Notes: generated by a model not told the origin, from the sequence alone. A stretch of DNA of 37,445 bases from a virus (UHGV-1374556); one strand, 5' to 3'. Shown: positions 158 to 36,105, numbered from the stretch's first letter. Translations and numbers: made by a program.

Positions 158-169
158 TAAAGTCACAAA
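158..169. repeat. attL core candidate TAAAGTCACAAA
   Basis: Exact 12-bp match to 37393-37404. Overlaps the integrase stop codon (TCA on the plus strand at 163-165). Confidence 0.6.
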
Positions 170-1299
170 TCAATGATTATCTTTTCTAGCTCTTTTCGCA
201 GATCCTCTATGTCACGGTGGCCGTAAACCTTGTTGGTAATGTCGGCCTTGAATGAGTGTCCCATCATCCGTTTACGGTCGTTTTCTTTTACCTCATACTT
301 TTCGCACAACATAGAAAATGTATGCCGGCAGTCATGTGGTGTATGTTTGGGGTCACCTGGAATTCCAAGCCGGTTTAGTAGCTCATCCATTTGTTTTCTG
401 AAATCTTTGTCGCTGCACGGAAGGAGCTTCCCATACTTGCTTATCCGGCGTTCAACCAAAGGGAGAATACCGGAATGAATTGGTACGATACGTCCTTTAC
501 CAGCTTCCGTTTTTATTCCACCCATAAAATACTTTTTCTGTAAATTCACTTCGAGGCCAATGTATTCTGATATACGCCATCCGGAATAGCACATTATGAG
601 AAGCATCTCAGCGGTTTCATTTGTTTTGTTATCCCACAGGATTTTCAGGTCTGCATCTGAAAATGGCACACCATGTTCATCATCGTCATCCCGTTTGATT
701 TTGACATACTGGCTATAATCCTTATCACACCATCCTTGACTGTCAGCGTACTTATACATTTGCCTGTACAGGTTCCTGATAAGTTCCAGGCTGGCATATT
801 TTAGATTACACGCATCCAGGTTATCCTGCAGGTCTTTTGCGCGGAGGGAGCTAAATATTTTATCATAGAGAGACGCACAGTTTTTATATGCGGCCTTGAT
901 TGAATATTTGGTTGCATTAGAGTATTTATTGCCTTCGGAGAATTTATCCGTGTAGAAGGCCTTGTAGACCTCTGAGAAGGTCTTTTCGGGTTCGTCCGGT
1001 TCAATTCCCTTGACGCGGTTGTAATCAGCCATAATCTTTTCCGCCAGGGCATCAAGGCTCCCAGTGGAATCAGGCAGCCGCAGGGTGGCCTCCATGCCGG
1101 GGGTATAGGTGCCAGCTTTGAGGGATGTGAGGATGATGAAGCCTTTCATCCAGTCATCCACGTAGCAGAGGGCCGGGGGCCGGTTCCCATCAATGTCTGC
1201 CGGTGGGTGGACCGCATAGGGGTTCCTCCGGCTCTTGCCAAGGTATCGGATGGAGCCGTAGCCGTTGGGGAGCCTGGGATGTTTCTTTCGTTTTGGCAT
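163..1299 (-). CDS. int: Tyrosine recombinase / phage integrase
   Basis: 378 aa. C-terminal catalytic motifs HDCRHTF...MMGHS...VYGHRD (R, H-x-x-R, H, Y). Positioned at the prophage end next to att. Confidence 0.9.
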   Translation of the reverse strand: MPKRKKHPRLPNGYGSIRYLGKSRRNPYAVHPPADIDGNRPPALCYVDDWMKGFIILTSLKAGTYTPGMEATLRLPDSTGSLDALAEKIMADYNRVKGIEPDEPEKTFSEVYKAFYTDKFSEGNKYSNATKYSIKAAYKNCASLYDKIFSSLRAKDLQDNLDACNLKYASLELIRNLYRQMYKYADSQGWCDKDYSQYVKIKRDDDDEHGVPFSDADLKILWDNKTNETAEMLLIMCYSGWRISEYIGLEVNLQKKYFMGGIKTEAGKGRIVPIHSGILPLVERRISKYGKLLPCSDKDFRKQMDELLNRLGIPGDPKHTPHDCRHTFSMLCEKYEVKENDRKRMMGHSFKADITNKVYGHRDIEDLRKELEKIIIDL

Positions 1300-1481: not shown

Positions 1482-2285
1482 TTATTGCTCGGTTGCTATT
1501 AAAGAGTACTTCGCACTTGTACTGATTTCAAAAGTGTAATCGGATTCTAATTTTAAATTACTATAAGAATCCCTTACTATTTCCTTTAAGCGGTCATTTT
1601 TGTCTCTTACGGTCAGACTCCCAATTCCATTTTCTTTGACAACATTATAAACTCCAGATGGAATATCCTTCCCGACCAGATAGTTTCCTGGAGTAAAGCT
1701 AAATGCTTCTGGTTGCGATTCCGATTCTGTATCACTCTTCATGCTCTCAGTGGTTTCGCTTTCGATTGGAACAAGCATCTCGTTTTCAGATTCAGAAGTT
1801 TCTCCATTTTTTTCATCCCAAATATGAGAAAGCACAGAGTTTCTATCCTTATCACACCAAATAGTAATCATAGGGACGTCCCCAACATATTGTGTCCATA
1901 GGACATGGTCATAATCAAACCAATCTTGGTTCATTAATTCATTTATTTGGCTTCCAACAACTTTGGAATCGGCACCTGATAAGGTGGTTATATACAGTAA
2001 CTGCTGCCCATCAACGCGCACCCCCGTCACGGTACTCCCTATAAGATTCGAATATGCATAGTCAGCAACCTTGTCAAAGGAAGTCTCTGCTTGATTAGGG
2101 GAAGACGAGCTATCCTCGTTGGATTGCTGTAATACTGCCGCGTATTCAGATTCCATTTCTGTATTTTTTTCTTTTAGAATATTATATTCCGATTTTAGCC
2201 TATCGTATTCATTCTGCGAAACCCCATTGCTACATGCTGTTAATGAAAGCACAAGCAGGGGGAAAATAATAAAGCGCTTTTTCAT
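1482..2285 (-). CDS. Lipoprotein moron between int and the repressor module (Ltp-like superinfection-exclusion candidate)
   Basis: 267 aa. Signal peptide plus lipobox LSLTAC-S. AT-rich relative to neighbours. AGGAGG RBS upstream of the ATG. Confidence 0.7.
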   Translation of the reverse strand: MKKRFIIFPLLVLSLTACSNGVSQNEYDRLKSEYNILKEKNTEMESEYAAVLQQSNEDSSSSPNQAETSFDKVADYAYSNLIGSTVTGVRVDGQQLLYITTLSGADSKVVGSQINELMNQDWFDYDHVLWTQYVGDVPMITIWCDKDRNSVLSHIWDEKNGETSESENEMLVPIESETTESMKSDTESESQPEAFSFTPGNYLVGKDIPSGVYNVVKENGIGSLTVRDKNDRLKEIVRDSYSNLKLESDYTFEISTSAKYSLIATEQ

Positions 2286-3320: not shown

Positions 3321-3412
3321 ATGAGCATACAAAGGAATTACGTTGTAAAACCTTTGCACACTGCGGAAATGTTATTTACTTCGTCTGATAAACAAAGCAT
3401 ATCACATTTCCG
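3302..3412. promoter_or_regulatory. Three copies of the operator-like half-site CGGAAATG
   Basis: CGGAAATG at 3302-3309 and 3364-3371, with the inverted copy CATTTCCG at 3405-3412. All lie between the divergent repressor and cro-like genes, overlapping the promoter. Confidence 0.5.
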
Positions 3413-3447
3413 TAGCATTTTCAATATTTATATTAAAGAAAGGTGGT

Positions 3448-8264: not shown

Positions 8265-8431
8265 CATTTCCAATAGATGAGCAGGTATTTATAGATAGGT
8301 GGTTATCAGCGTTAAATGAGCCAGATGAAGGGGATAGGGAACAGGCAGAGGCCACGGTGCAGACAATCACCCGGGCATATTATGCAGGTTTGGAAGATGG
8401 AAGGAAGGAGACAGCAGCATGCAGAGAATGA
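8261..8431 (+). CDS. Hypothetical small protein (56 aa)
   Basis: ATGA overlap with the upstream stop. Weak RBS. Confidence 0.3.
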   Translation: MTFPIDEQVFIDRWLSALNEPDEGDREQAEATVQTITRAYYAGLEDGRKETAACRE

Positions 8432-8667
8432 TGTGTATATCAGTGGAGCAGCACAACCGGATGATTGAAAGCTATGACAAAGCCATGGAAGAGTTACAGG
8501 AGCTTAGAGAGCTGCTACAGATGACCCCGGGCGACGTGGACGAAGTTGCACCGATGCAACCAAAGGGCCGTCTTAGGGACATTATGGATACCCTTATGTC
8601 GGCTAACGATGAAACCTTGAAGGAAGTTTACTATTTCGTCCAAGGTTATGCAGGGAGGACATATTGA
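8419..8667 (+). CDS. Hypothetical protein
   Basis: 82 aa. AAGGAG RBS, spacing 8. Confidence 0.55.
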   Translation: MQRMMCISVEQHNRMIESYDKAMEELQELRELLQMTPGDVDEVAPMQPKGRLRDIMDTLMSANDETLKEVYYFVQGYAGRTY

Positions 8668-8668
8668 T

Positions 8669-8770
8669 ATGGATGATTGCAAACAGAGGATTATTGGATT
8701 AATAAACGGCGCACAGGATGATGAGAAGCTGGAACTGATACTTCGGTTTATCAGAAGGCTGTTAAATTAA
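8669..8770 (+). CDS. Hypothetical small protein (33 aa)
   Basis: GGAGG RBS about 10 nt upstream. Tight packing with its neighbours. Confidence 0.3.
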   Translation: MDDCKQRIIGLINGAQDDEKLELILRFIRRLLN

Positions 8771-8783
8771 GGAGGCGAAGAGC

Positions 8784-8951
8784 ATGGAAAGGAACGAAGA
8801 TAACAGGGCATCCATGTATCGGAGGGAGATTTTACGTCTTTTACGGTTTCTGTGGAAACAGCAGGACTTAAGGATGTGGCAGCAGATATACACGGTCATC
8901 CACTGTTTCTGCAATATGAAAGGGGTGGAGAAACATGACGGAAGAAGATAG
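8784..8951 (+). CDS. Hypothetical small protein (55 aa)
   Basis: GGAGG RBS, spacing 8. Confidence 0.4.
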   Translation: MERNEDNRASMYRREILRLLRFLWKQQDLRMWQQIYTVIHCFCNMKGVEKHDGRR

Positions 8952-9111
8952 AAAAGGAGTTGCCCGGGAATGCAGGAAAAGCATTATGAGCGCATTAAAG
9001 GATGTTGATGACCTTAAATTCCTGCGGCGAATCTACATAAGCATATTGGTTGCTAAAAATGGAAAGGTGGGTGACTGCCATGACAAACGAGCAGCTTGTA
9101 GCACAGATTAA
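8935..9111 (+). CDS. Hypothetical small protein (58 aa)
   Basis: GGTGGAG RBS. Overlaps the sigma-factor start by 32 nt. Confidence 0.3.
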   Translation: MTEEDRKGVARECRKSIMSALKDVDDLKFLRRIYISILVAKNGKVGDCHDKRAACSTD

Positions 9112-10045
9112 GGCCGGAGAGGATGTACAGAAGAACATGGAACAGCTTTATCTGCAGGTGAGGGACTACATTCATTCTGTGGCCATGAAGTACTGTAACA
9201 GCGGAGAGGTGGAGGACCTGGAGCAGGAAGGGTACCTGGCTCTGCATGCAGCCATTGAAAAGTATGACCCTGGCCAGGGTTTTAAATTCCTGACTTATGC
9301 AGCGTATTACATCCGGCAGGGGATGCAGCGTTACCTGCAGGTGAATGGGAGCTGCCTGCGTCTGCCGGTCCATTGCCAGGAGAAGATACAGAGGTACAAC
9401 CGGTTTTGTCAATCGTTCAAGATGGAGCATGGCAGGAAACCCACGGATACTGAGATTGCAGCAGGGCTGGACCTTATTTTGGAGCAGGTATGGGAAATCA
9501 AGGAGAATGCCCGGGCAATTCACCTGGGCAGCCTGGATGCTCCAGTTATGGGGATAGAAGGCGGTGAGGATGCCACCGTGGGAGAATTGACTGGAGATGA
9601 TACGGATGTAGAGGGAGAGGTTGTAGAACAGATCCAGGACGGGCAGCTTAAGGATATATTGTGGGGATGTGTGGATGCTCTCCCGGACCGGCAGCCGGAG
9701 GTGATACGGAAACGGTATCAGCAGGACATGACCCTGGCTGAAATCGGAAAAACATATGGAGTCACTGCAGAGGCAGTAAGGCAGACACATGCGAAAGCAT
9801 TGCGGGAATTACGGAAACCCAGAGCCGCCAAGCAGCTGCGCCCATTTCTTCCGGGAGTGGGAATCTATGAAGGCGGCATTGATAGCTTTAACAGGACGTG
9901 GACCAGCAGTACCGAAAGGGCAGCACTCAGTATGGCTGAGTCCATGGAGATAGAGGAACGAAGGCGGGAGAAACACATGGAGCTGCTGGATAAAATAAGG
10001 GCGAAAGTTGCGATATCGCAACAGAAGGGAGAACAACATGAATAA
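9080..10045 (+). CDS. Phage-encoded sigma-70 family RNA polymerase sigma factor with a roughly 70-aa C-terminal extension
   Basis: Region 2 EDLEQEGYLALHAAIEKYDPGQGFKFLTYAAYYIRQGMQRYL. Region 4 MTLAEIGKTYGVTAEAVRQTHAKALRELRK. Start at MTNEQ with AAAGGTGGGTG RBS. Confidence 0.85.
   Translation: MTNEQLVAQIKAGEDVQKNMEQLYLQVRDYIHSVAMKYCNSGEVEDLEQEGYLALHAAIEKYDPGQGFKFLTYAAYYIRQGMQRYLQVNGSCLRLPVHCQEKIQRYNRFCQSFKMEHGRKPTDTEIAAGLDLILEQVWEIKENARAIHLGSLDAPVMGIEGGEDATVGELTGDDTDVEGEVVEQIQDGQLKDILWGCVDALPDRQPEVIRKRYQQDMTLAEIGKTYGVTAEAVRQTHAKALRELRKPRAAKQLRPFLPGVGIYEGGIDSFNRTWTSSTERAALSMAESMEIEERRREKHMELLDKIRAKVAISQQKGEQHE
10007..10022. promoter_or_regulatory. Palindrome GTTGCGATATCGCAAC, copy 2 of 4
   Basis: Lies inside the 3' end of the sigma-factor gene, encoding VAISQQ. 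It is 15 nt upstream of the next start codon (10038), directly 5' of its RBS GAAGGGAGA. Confidence 0.7.
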
Positions 10046-11676: not shown

Positions 11677-11838
11677 GTGTTGATACAGGTCAAGATTGTA
11701 GGGAATGGAAACAGTCTCATATTTGACTGCGACCTCAATGACTATGGTCACCTCATATGGCTCCTGGAAATGGCCTGGGAAAGGGATTATGACATTTATA
11801 TTCGCGAAGTCAGGCCGGGTGATTCAGATGAGCAATGA
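11677..11838 (+). CDS. Hypothetical small protein
   Basis: AAAGGAG RBS, spacing 8, to a GTG start. The frame stays open back to 11656. Confidence 0.35.
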   Translation: MLIQVKIVGNGNSLIFDCDLNDYGHLIWLLEMAWERDYDIYIREVRPGDSDEQ

Positions 11839-12589
11839 AGATAAAAATTGGGTGAAGGTGAATAGGACAGTTCAAAGTCACTGGGTATGGATGGACAAGC
11901 CTTTTTCAAGAGGGCAGGCCTGGATTGATTTGATACTGCTGGCGCAGCATCAGGATGGCACTTTTACAGACAGACGAGGAAATCTCATTGACGGAAAGCG
12001 CGGCTGCGTATACCGGAGCGAGCGTTTTTTGGCCGAAAGATGGGGATGGAGCCGGAAAAAGTTAGCTAACTATCTATTGCGGTTAGAACAGGATAACATG
12101 ATAGAAGTGGACAAAAAGAGAGCCAGTGAAAGAACCACCATTTTCATCGTAAATTATGAGACTTTTCAGGGTAAAGGGGCCAGTAAAGGAGCCAGTGGGG
12201 AGCCAGTGGGGAACCAGTCGGGAGCCAGTGGGGAACCAGTCGGGAACATAAACAAGAATGTAAAGAAGGATAAGAATGTAAAGAAGGATAAAGAAAATAA
12301 ATATCCCGCGCTTTTTGAATCTTTTTGGGGAGTGTATCCGAGAAAGAAGGAGAAAGCAAAAGCCTTTAAGTGTTTTCAAACCAGAGTCAACGAAGGATGC
12401 AGTGAGGCGGCTCTTATAGAAGCGGCAAAGGCCTATGCAGAGGAATGTGATGCACAAAGGCAGGAGGAAAGGTTTATTAAGTATCCGGCCACATTTTTGG
12501 GACCCAATAGGCCGTACGAAGATTATTTATTGCGAGAAGGCAAAGAGGCGGTCCCGACAACAACGAAAGATGGGAGGATCCTGCAATGA
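11828..12589 (+). CDS. Replisome organiser / replication initiator-like protein (DnaD-like winged-helix N-domain) with a repeat-encoded linker
   Basis: Start at MSNEDKNW overlapping the upstream stop. N-domain WVWMDKPFSRGQAWIDLILLAQ...YRSERFLAERWGWSRKKLANYL. Linker GASGEPVGN x2 and NVKKDK x2 encoded by tandem DNA repeats. Confidence 0.6.
   Translation: MSNEDKNWVKVNRTVQSHWVWMDKPFSRGQAWIDLILLAQHQDGTFTDRRGNLIDGKRGCVYRSERFLAERWGWSRKKLANYLLRLEQDNMIEVDKKRASERTTIFIVNYETFQGKGASKGASGEPVGNQSGASGEPVGNINKNVKKDKNVKKDKENKYPALFESFWGVYPRKKEKAKAFKCFQTRVNEGCSEAALIEAAKAYAEECDAQRQEERFIKYPATFLGPNRPYEDYLLREGKEAVPTTTKDGRILQ
12178..12292. repeat. Tandem direct repeats inside the replisome-organiser gene (putative ori iterons)
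   Basis: AGCCAGTGGGGAACCAGTCGGG, 22 bp x2, at 12201-12244, with partial copies from 12178. AATGTAAAGAAGGATAAG, 18 bp x2, at 12257-12292. Confidence 0.5.
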
Positions 12590-17653: not shown

Positions 17654-18121
17654 ATGGCAAGGCCAGCTAAATCAGCCAGGGTAAAGACTGGCACAATTAC
17701 AAAAGAAGAAGAGGCGCAGCGCCTTGAGCTGGAGGATAAGCTTCGCGGGAAGAATGACAAACTGGTACCGCCGCTGTACCTAACAGAATCCCAGATGGAG
17801 ATATTCAACTACATTATGGCCGAACTGCAGGAGGCCGACATCCTGGGTAACCTGGACCTGTTCATCCTGGCACAAACCGCCATTGCTGTTGACCGTATTC
17901 AGGAGCTGGACCGGCAGGCCAACGATAAGAAGGAACTGCTCTTTGAGAATTCCTTCCGGATGGCCAGGGCCGAAGCTTCAAAAGAATACTTCCGGTGCTG
18001 CAATGAGCTGTGCCTATCCCCTCAGAGCCGGGCGAAGCTGTCTATTGCGAAAGTGAAGCCTGGAGAGAAGAAAAAGACCATCATGGATTTAATCAATGAG
18101 GACAACGAAGACGAAGGTTAA
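17654..18121 (+). CDS. terS: Terminase small subunit, P27 family
   Basis: Start MARPAKSARVKTGTITKEEE, typical of P27-family TerS. GGAAGGTGA RBS. Confidence 0.8.
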   Translation: MARPAKSARVKTGTITKEEEAQRLELEDKLRGKNDKLVPPLYLTESQMEIFNYIMAELQEADILGNLDLFILAQTAIAVDRIQELDRQANDKKELLFENSFRMARAEASKEYFRCCNELCLSPQSRAKLSIAKVKPGEKKKTIMDLINEDNEDEG

Positions 18122-19784
18122 GCACCCGGCGGTCGCATATGCTGAGGGGGTATGCCGGGGAAAGATTAAAGCGCCGAGGTACGTAATCCTCCAGTGTGCA
18201 GACTTTTTGCAGACGTACAAAGGGAAGAACAAGAAATATATCATCAATGAGAGTCTGCTGGATAAGATATATAAGATTCTTAAGGTGCTCAAGATGGCCA
18301 AGGGACCCAAGGCTGGGAGGTCCATCTATTCGGCGCTGGCCGGGTATCAGTGGCTGCTCATAACGGCGGTCCTCTGTACGGTCCATCGGAATGACAAACG
18401 GATGCGCCGGTACCAGACGGCGGTCCTGGAGATTTGCAGGAAGAATGGCAAAACATTTGTTGTTGCTGTTCTTTTTATTTTGCTCTTTTACCTGGAGCCG
18501 GCCTATTCCCGGTTCTTTTCCGTGGCGCCGGATGGGGCGCTGGCCCGTGAGATTAAGGAGGCTCTGGAGCCGCTGCTGGCAACCAACGTGGAGGTCTTTG
18601 AGGAAAACGAGTTTAAGGTGCTGCGGGACTACATCCTGCATAACCCCACAAAGACGAAGTACACGCCACTCAATTATTCCACCAGCAGGATGGATGGTAA
18701 GGAACCCAGCGTGTTTATTGCGGATGAAGTGGGAGCGCTTCCCACCTCCTACCCGGTGGAGGCCATGCGTTCCGGCCAGCTGCTCATCCGGAATAAGCTG
18801 GGGTTTATCATCTCAACCAAATACCCAACAGCGGACAACCCTCTGGAGGATGAGGTGGACAACGCCAAGAAAATCCTGGATAGTCTGATTGATGATGAGA
18901 CCGTGTTTGCCCTACTCTATGAGCCAGACAATACAAAAGATTGGGCTACGGACGACACCATCCTGGCCCATGGAAATCCTCTGGCATTGGAAATTGAGAT
19001 GGTATGGGATGAACTGCTAAAGAAGCGCCGGAATGCTATCAACCGTGAGAAGCTGCGGGAAAACTTCCTGACCAAGCACTGTAACATCATCTATCAGGGC
19101 GCCGGGACAGAGACATACATCCCGATTGACCAGGTGAAGGCCTGCAAGGTACCGCGGATAGACTGGGAAGGCCGGGAGGTTTATGTGGGGGTTGACCTTG
19201 CAATGACAAACGATAACTGTTCCGTGACCATGTCGGCGGAGGAGGACGGGGAGATACTGAGCCACGTCATGACATTTATACCAGAGGGAAGGATTGATGA
19301 AAAGAGTGAGTTTGAGAAGTTTGATTACAGGGCGGCCATTGCCGCGGGAACCTGCATTGCCTGCGGTGATATGACAGTGGATTACGGTGTGATTGAGGAC
19401 TACGTGGCAGGCCTGGAAGAATCCAGGGGTGTGGTTATTAAGTCAATCGGCTACGACCGGTATAATGCCCTGTCAAGCGCCCAGAAATGGGATAAGGATT
19501 ACACAACAGTAGAAATACGGCAGCATTCGGACACCCTGCATCCTCCCACCAAGTTATTGGCGGAGATGGTGGCAAACCAGAAATGGCATTATGAGGAAAA
19601 CCGGTTGCTGGAAACCAATTTTGAGAACGCGAAGTGTACCTATGACACCAACATGAACCGGTATGTCAACAAGAAGAAATCCAAGGGGAAGGTGGACGGA
19701 GTGGTGAGCATTATCAACTCAGTGTACCTGCTCCAACAGGATATCCTTTTTGACGACAGTGGTTTTACAGTGCAGGTGTGTTAG
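18096..19784 (+). CDS. terL: Terminase large subunit
   Basis: 562 aa. N-terminus HPAVAYAEGVCRGKIKAPRYVILQCADFL. Walker A RKNGKT. C-terminal nuclease region. Overlaps terS. Confidence 0.9.
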   Translation: MRTTKTKVKHPAVAYAEGVCRGKIKAPRYVILQCADFLQTYKGKNKKYIINESLLDKIYKILKVLKMAKGPKAGRSIYSALAGYQWLLITAVLCTVHRNDKRMRRYQTAVLEICRKNGKTFVVAVLFILLFYLEPAYSRFFSVAPDGALAREIKEALEPLLATNVEVFEENEFKVLRDYILHNPTKTKYTPLNYSTSRMDGKEPSVFIADEVGALPTSYPVEAMRSGQLLIRNKLGFIISTKYPTADNPLEDEVDNAKKILDSLIDDETVFALLYEPDNTKDWATDDTILAHGNPLALEIEMVWDELLKKRRNAINREKLRENFLTKHCNIIYQGAGTETYIPIDQVKACKVPRIDWEGREVYVGVDLAMTNDNCSVTMSAEEDGEILSHVMTFIPEGRIDEKSEFEKFDYRAAIAAGTCIACGDMTVDYGVIEDYVAGLEESRGVVIKSIGYDRYNALSSAQKWDKDYTTVEIRQHSDTLHPPTKLLAEMVANQKWHYEENRLLETNFENAKCTYDTNMNRYVNKKKSKGKVDGVVSIINSVYLLQQDILFDDSGFTVQVC

Positions 19785-19798
19785 TTGCGATATCGCAA
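19785..19798. promoter_or_regulatory. Palindrome TTGCGATATCGCAA, copy 3 of 4 (14-bp core)
   Basis: Starts the base after the terL stop codon. Lies 21 nt upstream of the portal ATG, 5' of the AGGAG RBS. Confidence 0.7.
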
Positions 19799-19819
19799 TA
19801 GAGAGAGGAGTGATTGCAT

Positions 19820-21064
19820 ATGTGGTCCTTTCGGTTGAGGGCAGACCCGGAACCAGAGAAAAAAGAAACAGAGTCTAATGAGGATGCATTGCTGAGGGCC
19901 AGTCTGTCGGATGACTACATGACCAGGGACCAGGCCATGAACGTGCCGGCCTTTGCGGCCTGTGTGAATAAGATAGCGGAAACCGTTTCAACCATCCCTG
20001 TTCGGCTTTATAGGCTGGTGGATGGGAAGCTGGAAGCAGTTGAGGATGATGCCAGGGTTCGACTGCTAAATGATGATACCGGGGACACCCTGGATGGGGT
20101 GCAGTTCAAGCGGGCGCTGGTCAGGGACTATCTGACCGGGAAAGGCGGTTATGCTTTCATCAACCGGACCGGGAACCAGATAAGGTCCCTGCATTATGTC
20201 AGGGAATCTGAGGTATCCTTCCTGTTCACATCAGACCCGATTTTTAAGGACTACGACATCATGATTCAAGGGACGAAATATAAGCCCTTTGAATTTCTGA
20301 AAGTGCTCAGGAATACGGAGGATGGACGTTCCGGCAGGAGTGTGGTGGATGAGAACAGTGAAGTCCTGAGCGTAGTCTACCATTCCCTGAAGTACGAAAA
20401 GAACTTGGTCAAGACCGGCGGCAATAAGAAAGGGTTTATCAAGTCGGCAAAAAAACTGGCAGAACCGGCCATTAAGGCATTAAAGGCGGCATGGCACAGA
20501 CTTTACCAGAACAACACGGAAAATGTCGTCATATTGAACGAGGGGTTAGAGTTCCAGGAAGCCAGTAACACATCCGTGGAGATGCAGCTGAATGAGAACA
20601 AGAAAACCAACAGTGACGAAATCTGTAAGCTGTTCAACATGCCGCCGGCCATGATAAACGGCGGCGCCACGGAGCAGGATAAAACAAACTTCGTCCAGTA
20701 CTGCCTGAACCCAATCTTAAAAGAATTTGAGTGTGCCCTGAACCGGGACCTGCTTCTTGAATCAGAGAAGGGGTCCTTTTATTTTGCAACGGATACGTCG
20801 GAGCTGACGAAAGGGGACATTGAAAAACGTTTCCGGGCCTATGAAACGGCCTGTAAGAACGGATTCATGCAGATTGATGAAATACGGCGGTGGGAGAACA
20901 TGCCGCCATTGGGATTGGATTTTGTCCGCCTGGGTCTGCAGGATGTGCTGTATGACCCGGTGACAAAACAGTTTTATATGCCAAACATGAACCAAACCGG
21001 CGGACTCGGACAGAAAGAGTCAGAGCCGGTGCAGAAAGAAGGTGAAAAGAAAAATGAGGATTGA
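19820..21064 (+). CDS. Portal protein, HK97 family
   Basis: About 414 aa with portal-like composition. Sits between terL and the prohead protease. AGGAG RBS. Confidence 0.85.
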   Translation: MWSFRLRADPEPEKKETESNEDALLRASLSDDYMTRDQAMNVPAFAACVNKIAETVSTIPVRLYRLVDGKLEAVEDDARVRLLNDDTGDTLDGVQFKRALVRDYLTGKGGYAFINRTGNQIRSLHYVRESEVSFLFTSDPIFKDYDIMIQGTKYKPFEFLKVLRNTEDGRSGRSVVDENSEVLSVVYHSLKYEKNLVKTGGNKKGFIKSAKKLAEPAIKALKAAWHRLYQNNTENVVILNEGLEFQEASNTSVEMQLNENKKTNSDEICKLFNMPPAMINGGATEQDKTNFVQYCLNPILKEFECALNRDLLLESEKGSFYFATDTSELTKGDIEKRFRAYETACKNGFMQIDEIRRWENMPPLGLDFVRLGLQDVLYDPVTKQFYMPNMNQTGGLGQKESEPVQKEGEKKNED

Positions 21065-22875: not shown

Positions 22876-23172
22876 ATGAAGGTAAGCGAGATAACATTTA
22901 GCGATATCTGCCGGCAGATACGCGAAGAAGAGGCATATGTGACAGAGGAGAGCAGGAAACATCTTTCCATCCTCCAGAAGGCGGCCGTGGACTATGTGAA
23001 GGGATATACAGGCCTTGATGAGGCCGCGATTGATACACATGAGGATATCACAATTGCCGTCCTGGTACTTATCTCCGATATGTACGATAACCGGCAGATG
23101 ACCGTGGACAAGAACAATGTCAACCGGGTGGTGGATACCATCCTGGGGATGTATTGTGTCAATCTTCTGTGA
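22876..23172 (+). CDS. Head-tail connector (gp6-like DNA-packaging protein)
   Basis: 98 aa. Typical size and position. AAGGAG RBS. Confidence 0.65.
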   Translation: MKVSEITFSDICRQIREEEAYVTEESRKHLSILQKAAVDYVKGYTGLDEAAIDTHEDITIAVLVLISDMYDNRQMTVDKNNVNRVVDTILGMYCVNLL

Positions 23173-34488: not shown

Positions 34489-34509
34489 AGAAGGGCGAGG
34501 TATATTAAA

Positions 34510-34953
34510 ATGGATAAGGTGAAAGCAGCGTTTGTTGCAGCATTTAGCATGATTTTTGGATGGTTGGGAATTCTGGCAGTTCCCGTGCTTATACTGGCTG
34601 GATTGAATTTTACAGACTACATAACCGGTATCCTGGCATCAAAACGGCGCAATGAGCTGGTGACCAGTGACAAGGGACTGTGGGGCATCGTCAAGAAGAT
34701 AGGTATGTGGATATTGGTGGGATTAGGATGGGCTATGGATGTGCTGATTAATTATGCCGGCCAGTATGTAGGACTGTCTATTAAACTGCCCTTCGTGGTT
34801 GCTACCATCGTGGCAGTATGGCTTATATGTAATGAGATAATCAGCATCCTGGAAAATCTGCTGGATATCGGCGTGGCCATGCCGCCATTTTTAATGCCGC
34901 TGGCCAGGATGATTAAGGGGCAGGTTGAAGATAAGACAAAAATGGATACCTGA
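34510..34953 (+). CDS. Holin
   Basis: 147 aa with three predicted TM helices and a charged C-terminus, immediately upstream of the endolysin. Confidence 0.8.
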   Translation: MDKVKAAFVAAFSMIFGWLGILAVPVLILAGLNFTDYITGILASKRRNELVTSDKGLWGIVKKIGMWILVGLGWAMDVLINYAGQYVGLSIKLPFVVATIVAVWLICNEIISILENLLDIGVAMPPFLMPLARMIKGQVEDKTKMDT

Positions 34954-34996
34954 GAGGAGGTGGTCCGCATATCTCCCGCCGCGGGGTTAAGCGGGC

Positions 34997-35026
34997 GTTG
35001 CGATATCGCAACTTGTGACGTCACAA
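34997..35026. promoter_or_regulatory. Palindrome GTTGCGATATCGCAAC (copy 4 of 4) abutting a second perfect palindrome TTGTGACGTCACAA
   Basis: 16-bp palindrome at 34997-35012 is directly followed by a 14-bp palindrome at 35013-35026 in the holin-endolysin intergenic region. Confidence 0.7.
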
Positions 35027-35034
35027 CTTTTCAT

Positions 35035-35067
35035 GGCTCAGGGATGTCCCTGGGCCTTATTTTTTTT
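35035..35067 (+). terminator. Rho-independent terminator between holin and endolysin
   Basis: GGCTCAGGGATGTCCCTGGGCC stem-loop followed by TTATTTTTTTT. Confidence 0.65.
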
Positions 35068-35083
35068 GATGGAGGAAAACACT

Positions 35084-35857
35084 ATGAGTAAAACAGCAGC
35101 AGGATTAATACGGCACTGCAAGGACAAGCTGGGAACCCCTTACGTCTACGGCGCCAAGGGCGAGGTCCTTACCCAGGCCATCCTGGACCGCCTCGCCCGG
35201 GAGAACCCAGGTACATACACATCCACTTACAAAGCTAAGGCAGCCAAGTACATAGGCCAGCGCTGCACGGACTGTTCCGGCCTTATCAGCTGGTACACTG
35301 GGCGCATCCGCGGCAGCTACAACTACCACGACACAGCCGTGGAGCGCGTGGGTATCGACCATCTGGACGAGTCCATGGTCGGCTGGGCGCTGTGGAAGCC
35401 GGGCCACATCGGGGTATACATAGGTGATGGTTGGTGTATTGAGGCCAAGGGCATCAATTACGGCACCATCAAGTCCAGAGTGACCGCCACACCCTGGCAG
35501 AAGGTCCTCAAGCTCTGCGACATCGACTATACCCCGGTCCCAGTGACATGCACCCAGGGCTTTCATCCGGCCGCAGACGGCCAGCGCTGGCGGTATCAGT
35601 TTACAGACGGCAGCTATGCGGCTAATGGCTGGTATTGGCTCCGGGAGGCCACGGACGGTACCTATGGTTGGTATCTGTTCGATTCCGAGGGCTACATGCT
35701 GACCGGCTACCAGGTGGACCCCGCCGGTGAGGCATTTTTACTCTGTCCAGTCAAGGGCAGCGACGAGGGCAAGTGCATGATTACGGATGCCAGGGGAGCG
35801 CTCCGGATTGCAGAAGAATACGACATGGTAAATCGACGGTACGTGTTCGAGTGGTGA
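35084..35857 (+). CDS. Endolysin: NlpC/P60-family peptidase with C-terminal cell-wall-binding repeats
   Basis: Start MSKTAAG with GGAGGA RBS. Catalytic Cys in RCTDCSGLISW and His in GHIGVYIG. Repeats GWYWLREATDGTYGWYLFDSEGYMLTGY (CW_binding_1-like). Confidence 0.8.
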   Translation: MSKTAAGLIRHCKDKLGTPYVYGAKGEVLTQAILDRLARENPGTYTSTYKAKAAKYIGQRCTDCSGLISWYTGRIRGSYNYHDTAVERVGIDHLDESMVGWALWKPGHIGVYIGDGWCIEAKGINYGTIKSRVTATPWQKVLKLCDIDYTPVPVTCTQGFHPAADGQRWRYQFTDGSYAANGWYWLREATDGTYGWYLFDSEGYMLTGYQVDPAGEAFLLCPVKGSDEGKCMITDARGALRIAEEYDMVNRRYVFEW

Positions 35858-35892
35858 CACTGATGCCAGATAAGGATGGGGATAACAGAGGA

Positions 35893-35923
35893 GATGGGTC
35901 TAGTCCATAGGACCAGACCCATC
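35893..35923. terminator. Long stem-loop, GATGGGTCT...AGACCCATC with inner GTCC/GGAC pairing
   Basis: 9-bp outer stem plus 4-bp inner stem. No U-tract follows. Lies downstream of the endolysin. Confidence 0.35.
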
Positions 35924-36105
35924 CATGTACAAAATATTCGGGGGCATAGATGGTGACATCTACGAAAATATTATATCGACTAAATATAGACAAAGTATGA
36001 ATAGGAAAAATAAAAAGATAACTTAAAAAAAATTTTTAAAATCTGCAACTTTTTTGAAATACAATACGTCTAATATTATGAAATTATAAAAAGGAGGATT
36101 TGATA

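Follow-up and report, generated by a model that had tools for sequence, protein, structure and literature searches.

In debates on phage mosaicism, sequences that specially direct exchange have been argued over since 1980, with random illegitimate recombination followed by selection being the prevailing view. Botstein's modular theory (1980) is said to have postulated linker sequences between modules, some of which have reportedly been described at lambdoid gene boundaries. These lambdoid boundary sequences are ordinary short homologies, and their general importance is doubted. Other short sites have well-defined roles, with parS and the KorB operator OB being 13- to 16-bp palindromes bound by ParB-family proteins, and lambda tR' sits upstream of S-R-Rz. 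In T4-type phages, PeSL cassettes comprise a promoter and a terminator and mediate modular shuffling (Arbiol et al. 2010, PMC2839356; Comeau et al. 2014, PMC4122927). Cluster A mycobacteriophages carry 20 to 30 stoperators per genome, asymmetric 13-bp sites that are oriented with transcription, bound by a monomeric immunity repressor and co-varying with it (PMC6550527, PMC9283540). Inside the lysis module of Clostridioides difficile prophages lies a terminator-controlled leader, RCd22-abiF (PMC12373285). Here, we scrutinized the 130-bp gap between the holin and endolysin genes of UHGV-1374556, a stretch of 37,445 nucleotides (hereafter the window) that is a complete-looking temperate phage genome, a prophage of gut bacteria, along with the short palindromes found in this gap and their relatives elsewhere. 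These palindromes form a new family of boundary boxes that mark module and domain exchange and probably also mediate it.

The holin-endolysin gap of UHGV-1374556

Read 5' to 3', the gap consists of element X, palindromes P1 and P2, an 8-nt spacer, a 9-pair hairpin, its tail, 3 nt, the sequence GGAGGA and the endolysin ATG. The features of the gap and the two genes that border it are as follows:

34510-34953, + strand: holin (Phage_holin_4_1; PF05105, E 2.1e-25; phrog_199 holin), its stop ending at 34953
34954-34996, + strand: X element, with the Shine-Dalgarno (SD)-like stretch GAGGAGGTGGTCC, ATCTCCC and a small hairpin with loop GGGTTAA
34997-35012, unstranded: P1, 16-bp perfect palindrome GTTGCGATATCGCAAC, left edge of the portable endolysin cassette
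35013-35026, unstranded: P2, 14-bp perfect palindrome TTGTGACGTCACAA, fused to P1, a minor GTTG-N8-CAAC allele
35035-35067, + strand: putative intrinsic terminator T, hairpin at 35035-35056 and tail TTATTTTTTTT at 35057-35067
35071-35076, + strand: endolysin SD sequence GGAGGA, 3 nt past the T-tract, with the ATG at 35084
35084-35857, + strand: probable endolysin, NlpC/P60-type domain and C-terminal wall-binding repeats

An earlier sequence-only reading of this gap had described the abutting palindromes, the hairpin and the GGAGGA ribosome-binding site (RBS). All are present, with coordinates and counts slightly corrected; the hairpin is as described, and its tail carries a run of T8 rather than the T9 that had been counted. 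P1 had also been called a repeated junction element with its fourth copy here, and the window does hold four, three of them exact and one with a single mismatch. The main point that had been missed is that P1 is a family-wide gene and domain boundary box and not a lysis-cassette device. The supposed core in P2 resembling a catabolite-responsive element proved to be a mere resemblance, with the half-site spacing wrong and the promoter context absent, and on the same grounds P2 was rejected as a site for CRP or Rex. A small open reading frame (ORF) or stop-codon read-through across the gap was also considered; a frame of 43 codons runs through without a stop, but it is disrupted in relatives by 1-nt indels.

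Distribution and arrangement of P1

Allowing up to 3 mismatches, the window contains 4 matches to P1 against 0.04 expected (0/100 shuffles), while P2 alone is not significant, as a match within 2 mismatches arises in 9/100 shuffles. Exact copies of P1 start at 1316, 10007 and 34997, and the one-mismatch copy GTTGCGATATCGCAAT starts at 19784. Outside the holin-endolysin gap these copies and an associated hairpin are placed as follows:

1316-1331, unstranded: P1 copy, 16 nt 5' of the minus-strand integrase ATG, part of a conserved integrase cassette
1352-1370, - strand: terminator-like hairpin before P1 and int, holding the -35 of a divergent sigma-A promoter
10007-10022, unstranded: P1 copy within the final codons of the sigma gene, translated as VAISQQ, with the next ATG 15 nt on
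19784-19799, unstranded: P1 variant GTTGCGATATCGCAAT, which shares bases with the terL stop codon and lies 20 nt ahead of the portal ATG

Beyond the window, exact P1 occurs in at least 120 IMG/VR stretches. The loci analysed, cited below by L numbers, are partial contigs with flanks of 10 to 14 kb or less. Among the matches listed there are 119 distinct P1 contexts, and perfect contexts outnumber one-mismatch variants by 121 to 9. In a scan of one genome per species, P1 was repeated in Hungatella, Enterocloster, Lacrimispora and other Lachnospiraceae, always in prophage-like surroundings. A host regulon was rejected, given that all Lachnospiraceae matches are prophage-like and those in other phyla look like chance. 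Half-sites (GATATCGCAA) outside P1 were not enriched (5 contexts vs 3.5 expected), and in the literature searched neither box sequence appeared in any relevant context.

Three orders of elements recur. In the commonest, a terminator hairpin with its T-tract is followed by P1, an SD sequence and an ATG, and this order is found before accessory genes (Tad2-like, DUF4406, DUF6275, ORF6N) and before at least 9 different integrases. The integrase cassette itself, ~85 bp in length, is conserved before at least 9 different integrases and exists with P1 or with the P4 allele described below. In the second order, P1 follows a stop codon, whose last base is often common to both, and precedes an SD sequence and an ATG. 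The third runs from a stop codon through an optional X, P1 and a P2 or P3-type box to a terminator, an SD sequence and the endolysin. Start codons lay 13 to 20 nt past P1 in 43/118 contexts among the matches listed.

Alleles of the box and their conservation

P1 and P2 belong to a larger family of 16-bp dyads with the consensus GTTG-N8-CAAC, whose alleles differ symmetrically, with only the central dinucleotide being free:

P1 allele: GTTGCGA-TA-TCGCAAC
P2 allele: (G)TTGTGA-CG-TCACAAC
P3 allele: GTTGTAA-TA-TTACAAC
P4 allele (GTTGCACCGGTGCAAC): GTTGCAC-YR-GTGCAAC
P5 allele: GTTGTAA-CG-TTACAAC

P4 is as abundant as P1 (at least 120 stretches, up to 3 copies per 14 kb) and its arrangements match those of P1, down to an integrase cassette of identical build. 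P2 as a full 16-mer is rare, being found in 15 IMG/VR stretches, mostly endolysin leaders, and because its count is only 15, the counts of P1 and P4 are far above background. Among the matches listed, P2 occurs in 36 distinct contexts, mostly next to P1; P1 loci totalling 1.02 Mb contain 124 P1, 19 P2 and 1 P4, and P4 loci totalling 1.07 Mb contain 151 P4, 1 P1 and 0 P2. The P1 and P4 alleles are mutually exclusive, each private to a phage pool.

Sequence constraint on the boxes was assessed at 34 distinct endolysin loci picked by protein similarity. Mean pairwise identity was 0.969 for P1 and 0.973 for P2, compared to 0.881 for the first 300 nt of the gene and 0.752 for third codon positions. 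As the identity of P1 and P2 exceeds that of the adjacent coding sequence, the boxes are held constant while their neighbours drift.

Homology breaks and gene exchanges at the boxes

Homology between phages begins exactly at the P1 edge of the endolysin cassette, behind at least 10 different upstream genes. Across the close relatives of the endolysin (78 IMG/VR loci), the block P1-P2-TTTTCATGG-hairpin-T-tract-GATTGGAGG travels with the gene, and the preceding gene varies (51 distinct upstream sequences). Among known phages, INPHARED gave no match to this block. One and the same left flank is joined via P1 to different genes, and the reverse was also seen. Single ORFs, including Tad2-like, DUF4406 and DUF6275, are swapped between P1 plus ~10 nt and the downstream terminator. 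At L233, L201 and L182, homology reaches ~10 to 25 nt beyond P1, is lost over one ORF, and returns at the stop of that ORF and the second terminator. At L232 (2699-2760), the sigma gene is reduced to its first 14 codons and fused to P1 at the left edge of the box.

Self-contained accessory cassettes at L233, L201, L182, L216 and L278 (P1 +250 to +420) share one build, namely a first terminator (T1), P1, an SD-preceded ORF, and a stop codon with a second terminator (T2). T2 consists of AGCACGCGGGATTATCCTGGGTGCT and then a T-tract. In these cassettes, with terminators on both sides, no promoter was detectable.

A further breakpoint lies within the window, at a box of another allele type:

8545-8560, unstranded: degenerate P4-like box GTTGCACCGATGCAAC, lying in frame within ORF 8419-8667

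A 383-nt insertion, 8560-8942, is missing in L262, L199 and L212, and it begins at the right edge of this box. L212 carries a hybrid box at another breakpoint. The inserted segment encodes the C-terminal part of ORF 8419-8667 and another small ORF.

In-frame boxes at protein domain boundaries

Boxes are also found deep inside genes. Among the matches listed, P4 lies at least 60 codons deep in an ORF in 47/122 distinct contexts, and in 42 of these 47 it is read as GTT GCA CCG GTG CAA C, giving VAPVQ, though all three frames are stop-free. The in-frame copies encode hydrophilic linkers in at least 10 unrelated protein families, including a helix-turn-helix (HTH)-like family, phrog_15077 (22 contexts), tail-fibre-like proteins and a tape measure protein. 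In an Amidase_3 endolysin, P4 marks the exact border of the catalytic domain with the wall-binding domain. P1 is read in frame as VAISQ in phrog_15077 proteins, in the ParB_N protein of L296 and at the C-terminus of the window's sigma factor, and one P2 context reads VVTSQ.

Domain swaps coincide with these linkers. Up to VAISQQ the proteins of L160 and L176 share 50% identity, and beyond it they are unrelated. Conversely, those of L160 and L296 are unrelated before VAISQQ and have a common Cys-rich domain after it (43% identity, E 3e-13), such that in L296 a ParB_N domain is joined via P1 to the Cys-rich domain of the L160 type. Sequence comparison thus shows that the boxes occupy gene boundaries and protein linkers, and that homology breaks, cassette swaps and domain swaps occur there.

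The phrog_15077 family as a whole has a conserved HTH-like N-terminal domain, an in-frame P box and highly variable C-terminal domains. Its carriers are L160, L176, L273 and L319 for P1, and L422, L424, L439, L448 and others for P4. The presumed recognition helix reads G[IF]S[KT]ST[AT]SRYM in P1 carriers and G[LIMV]D[KS][TS][QM][VA]SRF[IVM] in P4 carriers.

Boxes as putative DNA sites and a candidate reader

We propose that the 130-bp gap is a module-boundary cassette belonging to the endolysin module, in which endolysin would be made only from transcripts reading through T, with T attenuating the gene or insulating it from the late operon. The GTTG-N8-CAAC boxes would act as DNA-level linker boxes, that is, as shared crossover points at module boundaries, most probably recognised by a dimeric DNA-binding protein. 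We hold this account, taken as a whole, with moderate confidence. A dimeric reader is proposed because the boxes are sequence-invariant, form a 7+2+7 dyad, and come in alleles exclusive to their pools.

Several features bear on whether P1 and P2 are read as DNA or as RNA. As RNA, they would be hairpins, serving either nut- or put-like read-through of T, or as processing or stabiliser hairpins that set the 5' ends of cistrons. Folding of the nascent RNA is consistent with this, having a probability of 0.95 for P1 and 0.63 to 0.93 for P2, and the gap folds as five consecutive hairpins (z = -2.5). P1 and P2 lie 9 nt before a strong terminator, and P1 ends 1 to 6 nt before the RBS in 43/118 contexts among the matches listed. 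Genes with terminators on both sides need read-through for expression, and a C. difficile prophage leader RNA with a lysis-module terminator controls abiF by read-through (PMC12373285). However, the stem of T and the second stem of X change by compensation, and those of P1 and P2 do not. In every allele the two halves of the box remain complementary as far in as positions 7 and 10, and neither these pairs nor the palindromic centre are of use to a hairpin. Among mismatched variants, neither a strand bias of G-U vs A-C nor a sense-strand preference for G-U was seen, and P1 and P2 can stand in either order with respect to the gene that follows. The commonest arrangement places the terminator 5' of P1, beyond the reach of an RNA hairpin, and 38% of P4 copies among the matches listed lie inside translated ORFs. 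Antiterminator pairing with T was not predicted, and Rfam gave no match. Taken together, we consider an RNA role for P1 and P2 quite unlikely, and these features are indications, short of proof, that P1 and P2 represent a double-stranded DNA site with two-fold symmetry.

A DNA site need not be a crossover point. P1 and P2 could be operators of a genome-wide regulator that tunes read-through in the manner of a roadblock, a stoperator or KorB OB, the mosaic junctions being a by-product. The target modules would then be integrase, replication, head and endolysin, and the window has four dyad-symmetric, invariant copies at module starts. Boxes usually lie 0 to 25 nt from a terminator and just 5' of an RBS, and pool-exclusive alleles are as expected of a cognate regulator. 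In addition, an HTH/ParB_N family bears the box in its own gene, just as parB genes carry parS, and its recognition helix differs by allele. Against such operators, no promoter stands at a fixed geometry to the box, no regulator gene co-occurs, and copies are found in protein linkers (lysins, tail fibres, tape measure proteins), which are odd places for an operator. The immunity repressor was rejected as binder, as P1 is invariant while cI homologues are 25 to 72% identical and the cI/cro region bears a different repeat; the stoperator motif instead co-varies with its repressor (PMC6550527). Overall, we regard the operator explanation as fairly unlikely.

Returning to the boxes as linkers, the best lead to a binder in other phages is the candidate phrog_15077 / ParB_N HTH family, which has the box in its own genes. 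Several observations count against the linker account. No phrog_15077 or ParB_N homologue was found among the window's proteins despite four P1 copies, and no common regulator neighbour was found among the 1523 ORFs of P1 loci. At 16 bp, the box is short for homologous recombination, and breakpoints at box edges with an unrelated far side require either an illegitimate event or a dedicated enzyme, which was not found. Box invariance could come from gene conversion among copies and not from selection for binding. Tight spacing between box and RBS, along with the frequent adjacent terminator, also fits a role in expression, and the T-tracts of some relatives are short, at 3 to 4 T. Finally, context frequencies are biased in that most loci were gathered because they contain a box, and ORFs were called by a crude longest-ORF rule.

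The window's four boxes would be either orphans inherited with their modules or sites read in trans. A stronger version of the linker account, whereby the boxes are sites of a dedicated allele-specific machinery that cuts, pairs or recombines phage DNA, with the phrog_15077 / ParB_N HTH proteins as candidates, seems to us unlikely.

Terminator T and expression of the endolysin

The T hairpin, GGCTCAGGG-ATGT-CCCTGGGCC, has 9 pairs including one G-U and a 4-nt loop, with a free energy of -17.0 kcal/mol and, upon folding, pair probabilities that are all at least 0.99. This G+C-rich hairpin is followed by the U-tract of an intrinsic terminator (tail UUAUUUUUUUU), and T is the top-scoring + strand terminator of the region. 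Its structure is conserved across 13 stem variants. Alignment of 24 T variants gave one consensus hairpin with double compensatory changes at 3/9 pairs, and the hairpin is retained also in relatives without P1 and P2. Conservation and folding thereby identify T, at the level of sequence, as what should be a true factor-independent terminator. The RBS of the endolysin is conserved as GATTGGAGG in relatives.

A co-transcribed holin-endolysin pair would have no transcription signal between its genes, and here there is a 130-bp gap with a strong terminator. The sequence-only reading had raised both insulation of the endolysin from the holin and separate control of its expression. The conserved terminator before the RBS makes some insulation or attenuation plausible, and a separate transcript found no support. 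Promoter-like sites were not found on the + strand of 34506-36036, nor were sigma-A-like promoters on the + strand of the gap and the holin 3' end. Because no promoter was seen and 3 nt separate the T-tract from the RBS, all endolysin transcripts must cross T. The evidence supports a conserved design in which the endolysin is probably attenuated or insulated by T and dependent on read-through, and not separately transcribed.

The possibility that the endolysin is its own transcription unit, with a promoter in the gap controlled by the palindromes, for example via the phage sigma factor, would fit a strong terminator before the gene and a sigma factor encoded at 9050-10045. There is no space for such a promoter in the 3 nt between T-tract and RBS, the + strand around the gene lacks promoter-like sites as above, and the hexamers of P1 and P2 lack sigma-70 geometry. 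Transcripts starting further upstream must still cross T, and the RpoD-like sigma is missing or truncated in most cassette-bearing phages. We therefore consider an independent unit very improbable indeed. The phage RpoD-like sigma was likewise rejected as the reader of P1, as most P1 loci lack it and L232 has only a truncated form. As a promoter, P1 was checked by eye and by script for sigma-A, a T-tract extended -10, a sigmaD-like CGATAT with TAAA-N15, the sigma-54 -24/-12 elements and a -35 (GCAAC) like those of extracytoplasmic function sigma factors. These types were rejected because the start would fall inside the downstream ORF or because they fit single sites only.

Regulation of T by alternative pairing was rejected too. 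An antiterminator pairing alternative to T was not predicted, and the 5' arm of T stays unpaired until the 3' arm is made, which speaks against a riboswitch or attenuator of that design. At L011, L036, L062 and L070, the endolysin is directly coupled to the preceding gene. Because these four relatives have the endolysin without palindrome or hairpin, the cassette is an optional regulatory add-on.

The X element

X was found in ~30 distinct contexts (the window, L210, L189, L343, L013 and ~25 others), either downstream of holin-like genes or, with no ORF present, in the interval from P1 to a terminator. GGTGRTCC, ATCTCCC and GGGT are invariant blocks, and the second stem covaries, with double changes at 4 pairs. 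In relatives, the over-long SD-like stretch of X reads AGAAAGGAGGTGATCC and is exactly complementary to the 3' end of 16S rRNA, with a proper start codon absent downstream; the block ATCTCCC is able to pair with this stretch. X may act as a stabiliser of the STAB-SD type or be a small RNA. At the Rfam gathering threshold the window had no matches, and at E up to 10 the gap, X included, gave noise only.

The phage genome and its probable host

Genes of the window not listed above include:

163-1299, minus strand: tyrosine integrase
1482-2285, minus strand: moron-like lipoprotein gene with signal peptide and LTAC lipobox, between an ImmA-like peptidase and the integrase
18096-19784: terL
19820-21064: portal

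After the integrase come ImmR/ImmA-type immunity genes, antirepressors and the RpoD-like sigma factor (9050-10045), which has regions 2, 3 and 4 and whose best NCBIfam matches, MzaA/RpoD-type models, are below cut-offs. The sigma gene is followed by DnaD- and DnaB-like replication genes, an ArpU/RinA-like regulator, an HNH endonuclease and terS. The portal is followed by head and tail genes, XkdX, and then the holin and the probable endolysin. The call of the endolysin is weaker than that of the holin, with NlpC/P60 scoring 21.5 bits against a cut-off of 23; its further basis is a PHROG endolysin match, a weak choline-binding repeat and its position after the holin.

Within the integrase cassette, a near-consensus sigma-A promoter, TTGCCA-17-TGaTATAAT, lies on the + strand at 1359-1387, directed away from int. 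From it, an RNA of ~85 nt could run to about 1445-1477 and be antisense to the lipoprotein gene at its 3' end; the lipoprotein itself may serve in lysogenic conversion or exclusion. Inside the DnaD-like initiator gene (11705-12589), five tandem copies of an 11-nt unit (GGAGCCAGTGG and variants) at 12188-12247 could represent iterons or an intragenic origin. An unrelated 16-bp perfect palindrome, TATCTGCCGGCAGATA, lies at 22905-22920 near the start of ORF 22876-23172, and is the sole other 16-bp palindrome of the window besides the P1-type boxes. The different inverted repeat of the cI/cro operator region is at 3361-3415.

The integrase cassettes of L308 (Enterocloster hominis) and L283 (Clostridium sp. 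1001271st1 H5) are nearly identical to that of the window, with the 40 nt after P1 in L308, reaching into the int coding sequence, differing at 3 positions. Based on these near-identical cassettes, the host of the window is probably an Enterocloster-like member of the Lachnospiraceae.

Implications and comparison with known systems

With a 16-bp family at gene and domain boundaries in hundreds of gut phage contexts, directed exchange becomes directly testable. The boxes are practical markers of module borders in uncultured Lachnospiraceae phages, and the in-frame boxes are natural junction points for swapping lysin domains. If a dedicated machinery did exist, it would mean programmed shuffling of modules and domains in gut Lachnospiraceae phages, within pools set by the box allele. 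The VAxxQ reading would permit action inside genes, and the boxes would be the physical form of Botstein's linkers.

Among regulatory systems, stoperators likewise repeat a single short motif many times across the phage genome, for the most part in small gaps between genes and with no relation to promoters. Here, however, there are ~4 palindromic 16-bp sites, which are invariant as the repressor diverges, such that neither the asymmetry nor the co-variation of stoperators is seen. The boxes are similar in form to parS and KorB OB, both being short perfect palindromes in few scattered copies, some of them in coding sequence, and the ParB_N protein of L296 and phrog_15077 bear P boxes in their own genes. 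Unlike those systems, a cognate ParB-family gene is absent from the window, and, as an integrating prophage, this phage would not be expected to have a partition function.

Nut and put RNAs would have hairpins upstream of the terminators that are read through; this order is seen at the endolysin site, the commonest arrangement has the terminator before P1, and many copies are in ORFs. The stems are invariant within an allele and show no compensatory change, no cognate factor was found, and there was no Rfam match. The gap resembles RCd22 and lambda tR' in having a strong terminator directly upstream of a lysis-cassette gene, with dependence on read-through. In those systems the terminator is preceded by a promoter of their own, and a defined mechanism, either antitermination or an antitoxin RNA, is at work; here, no promoter, antiterminator structure or factor was identified. 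An analogy to integron attC or to repetitive extragenic palindromes with RAYT proteins (REP/RAYT) was set aside as a remote lead only, the GTT/AAC polarity being reversed and no HUH or IntI gene being present.

Among exchange systems, the linkers of Botstein and the lambdoid phages are also short common sequences exactly at module boundaries, joining unrelated modules, but are without dyad symmetry, an allele system or in-frame use. PeSL shares more with the boxes. Both are short, conserved, composite intergenic motifs, repeated at indel and replacement junctions upstream of accessory genes, and both include a stem-loop terminator, with the T1, T2 and T hairpins adjoining P1 here. PeSL has a consensus sigma-70 early promoter, whereas none was found on the sense strand of any cassette type here, and its hosts are lytic T4-like phages rather than temperate Firmicutes phages. 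The core here is instead a 16-bp perfect palindrome with in-frame copies and pool-specific alleles. PeSL is thus the closest described system, and the palindromic core, the alleles and the in-frame use are new here.

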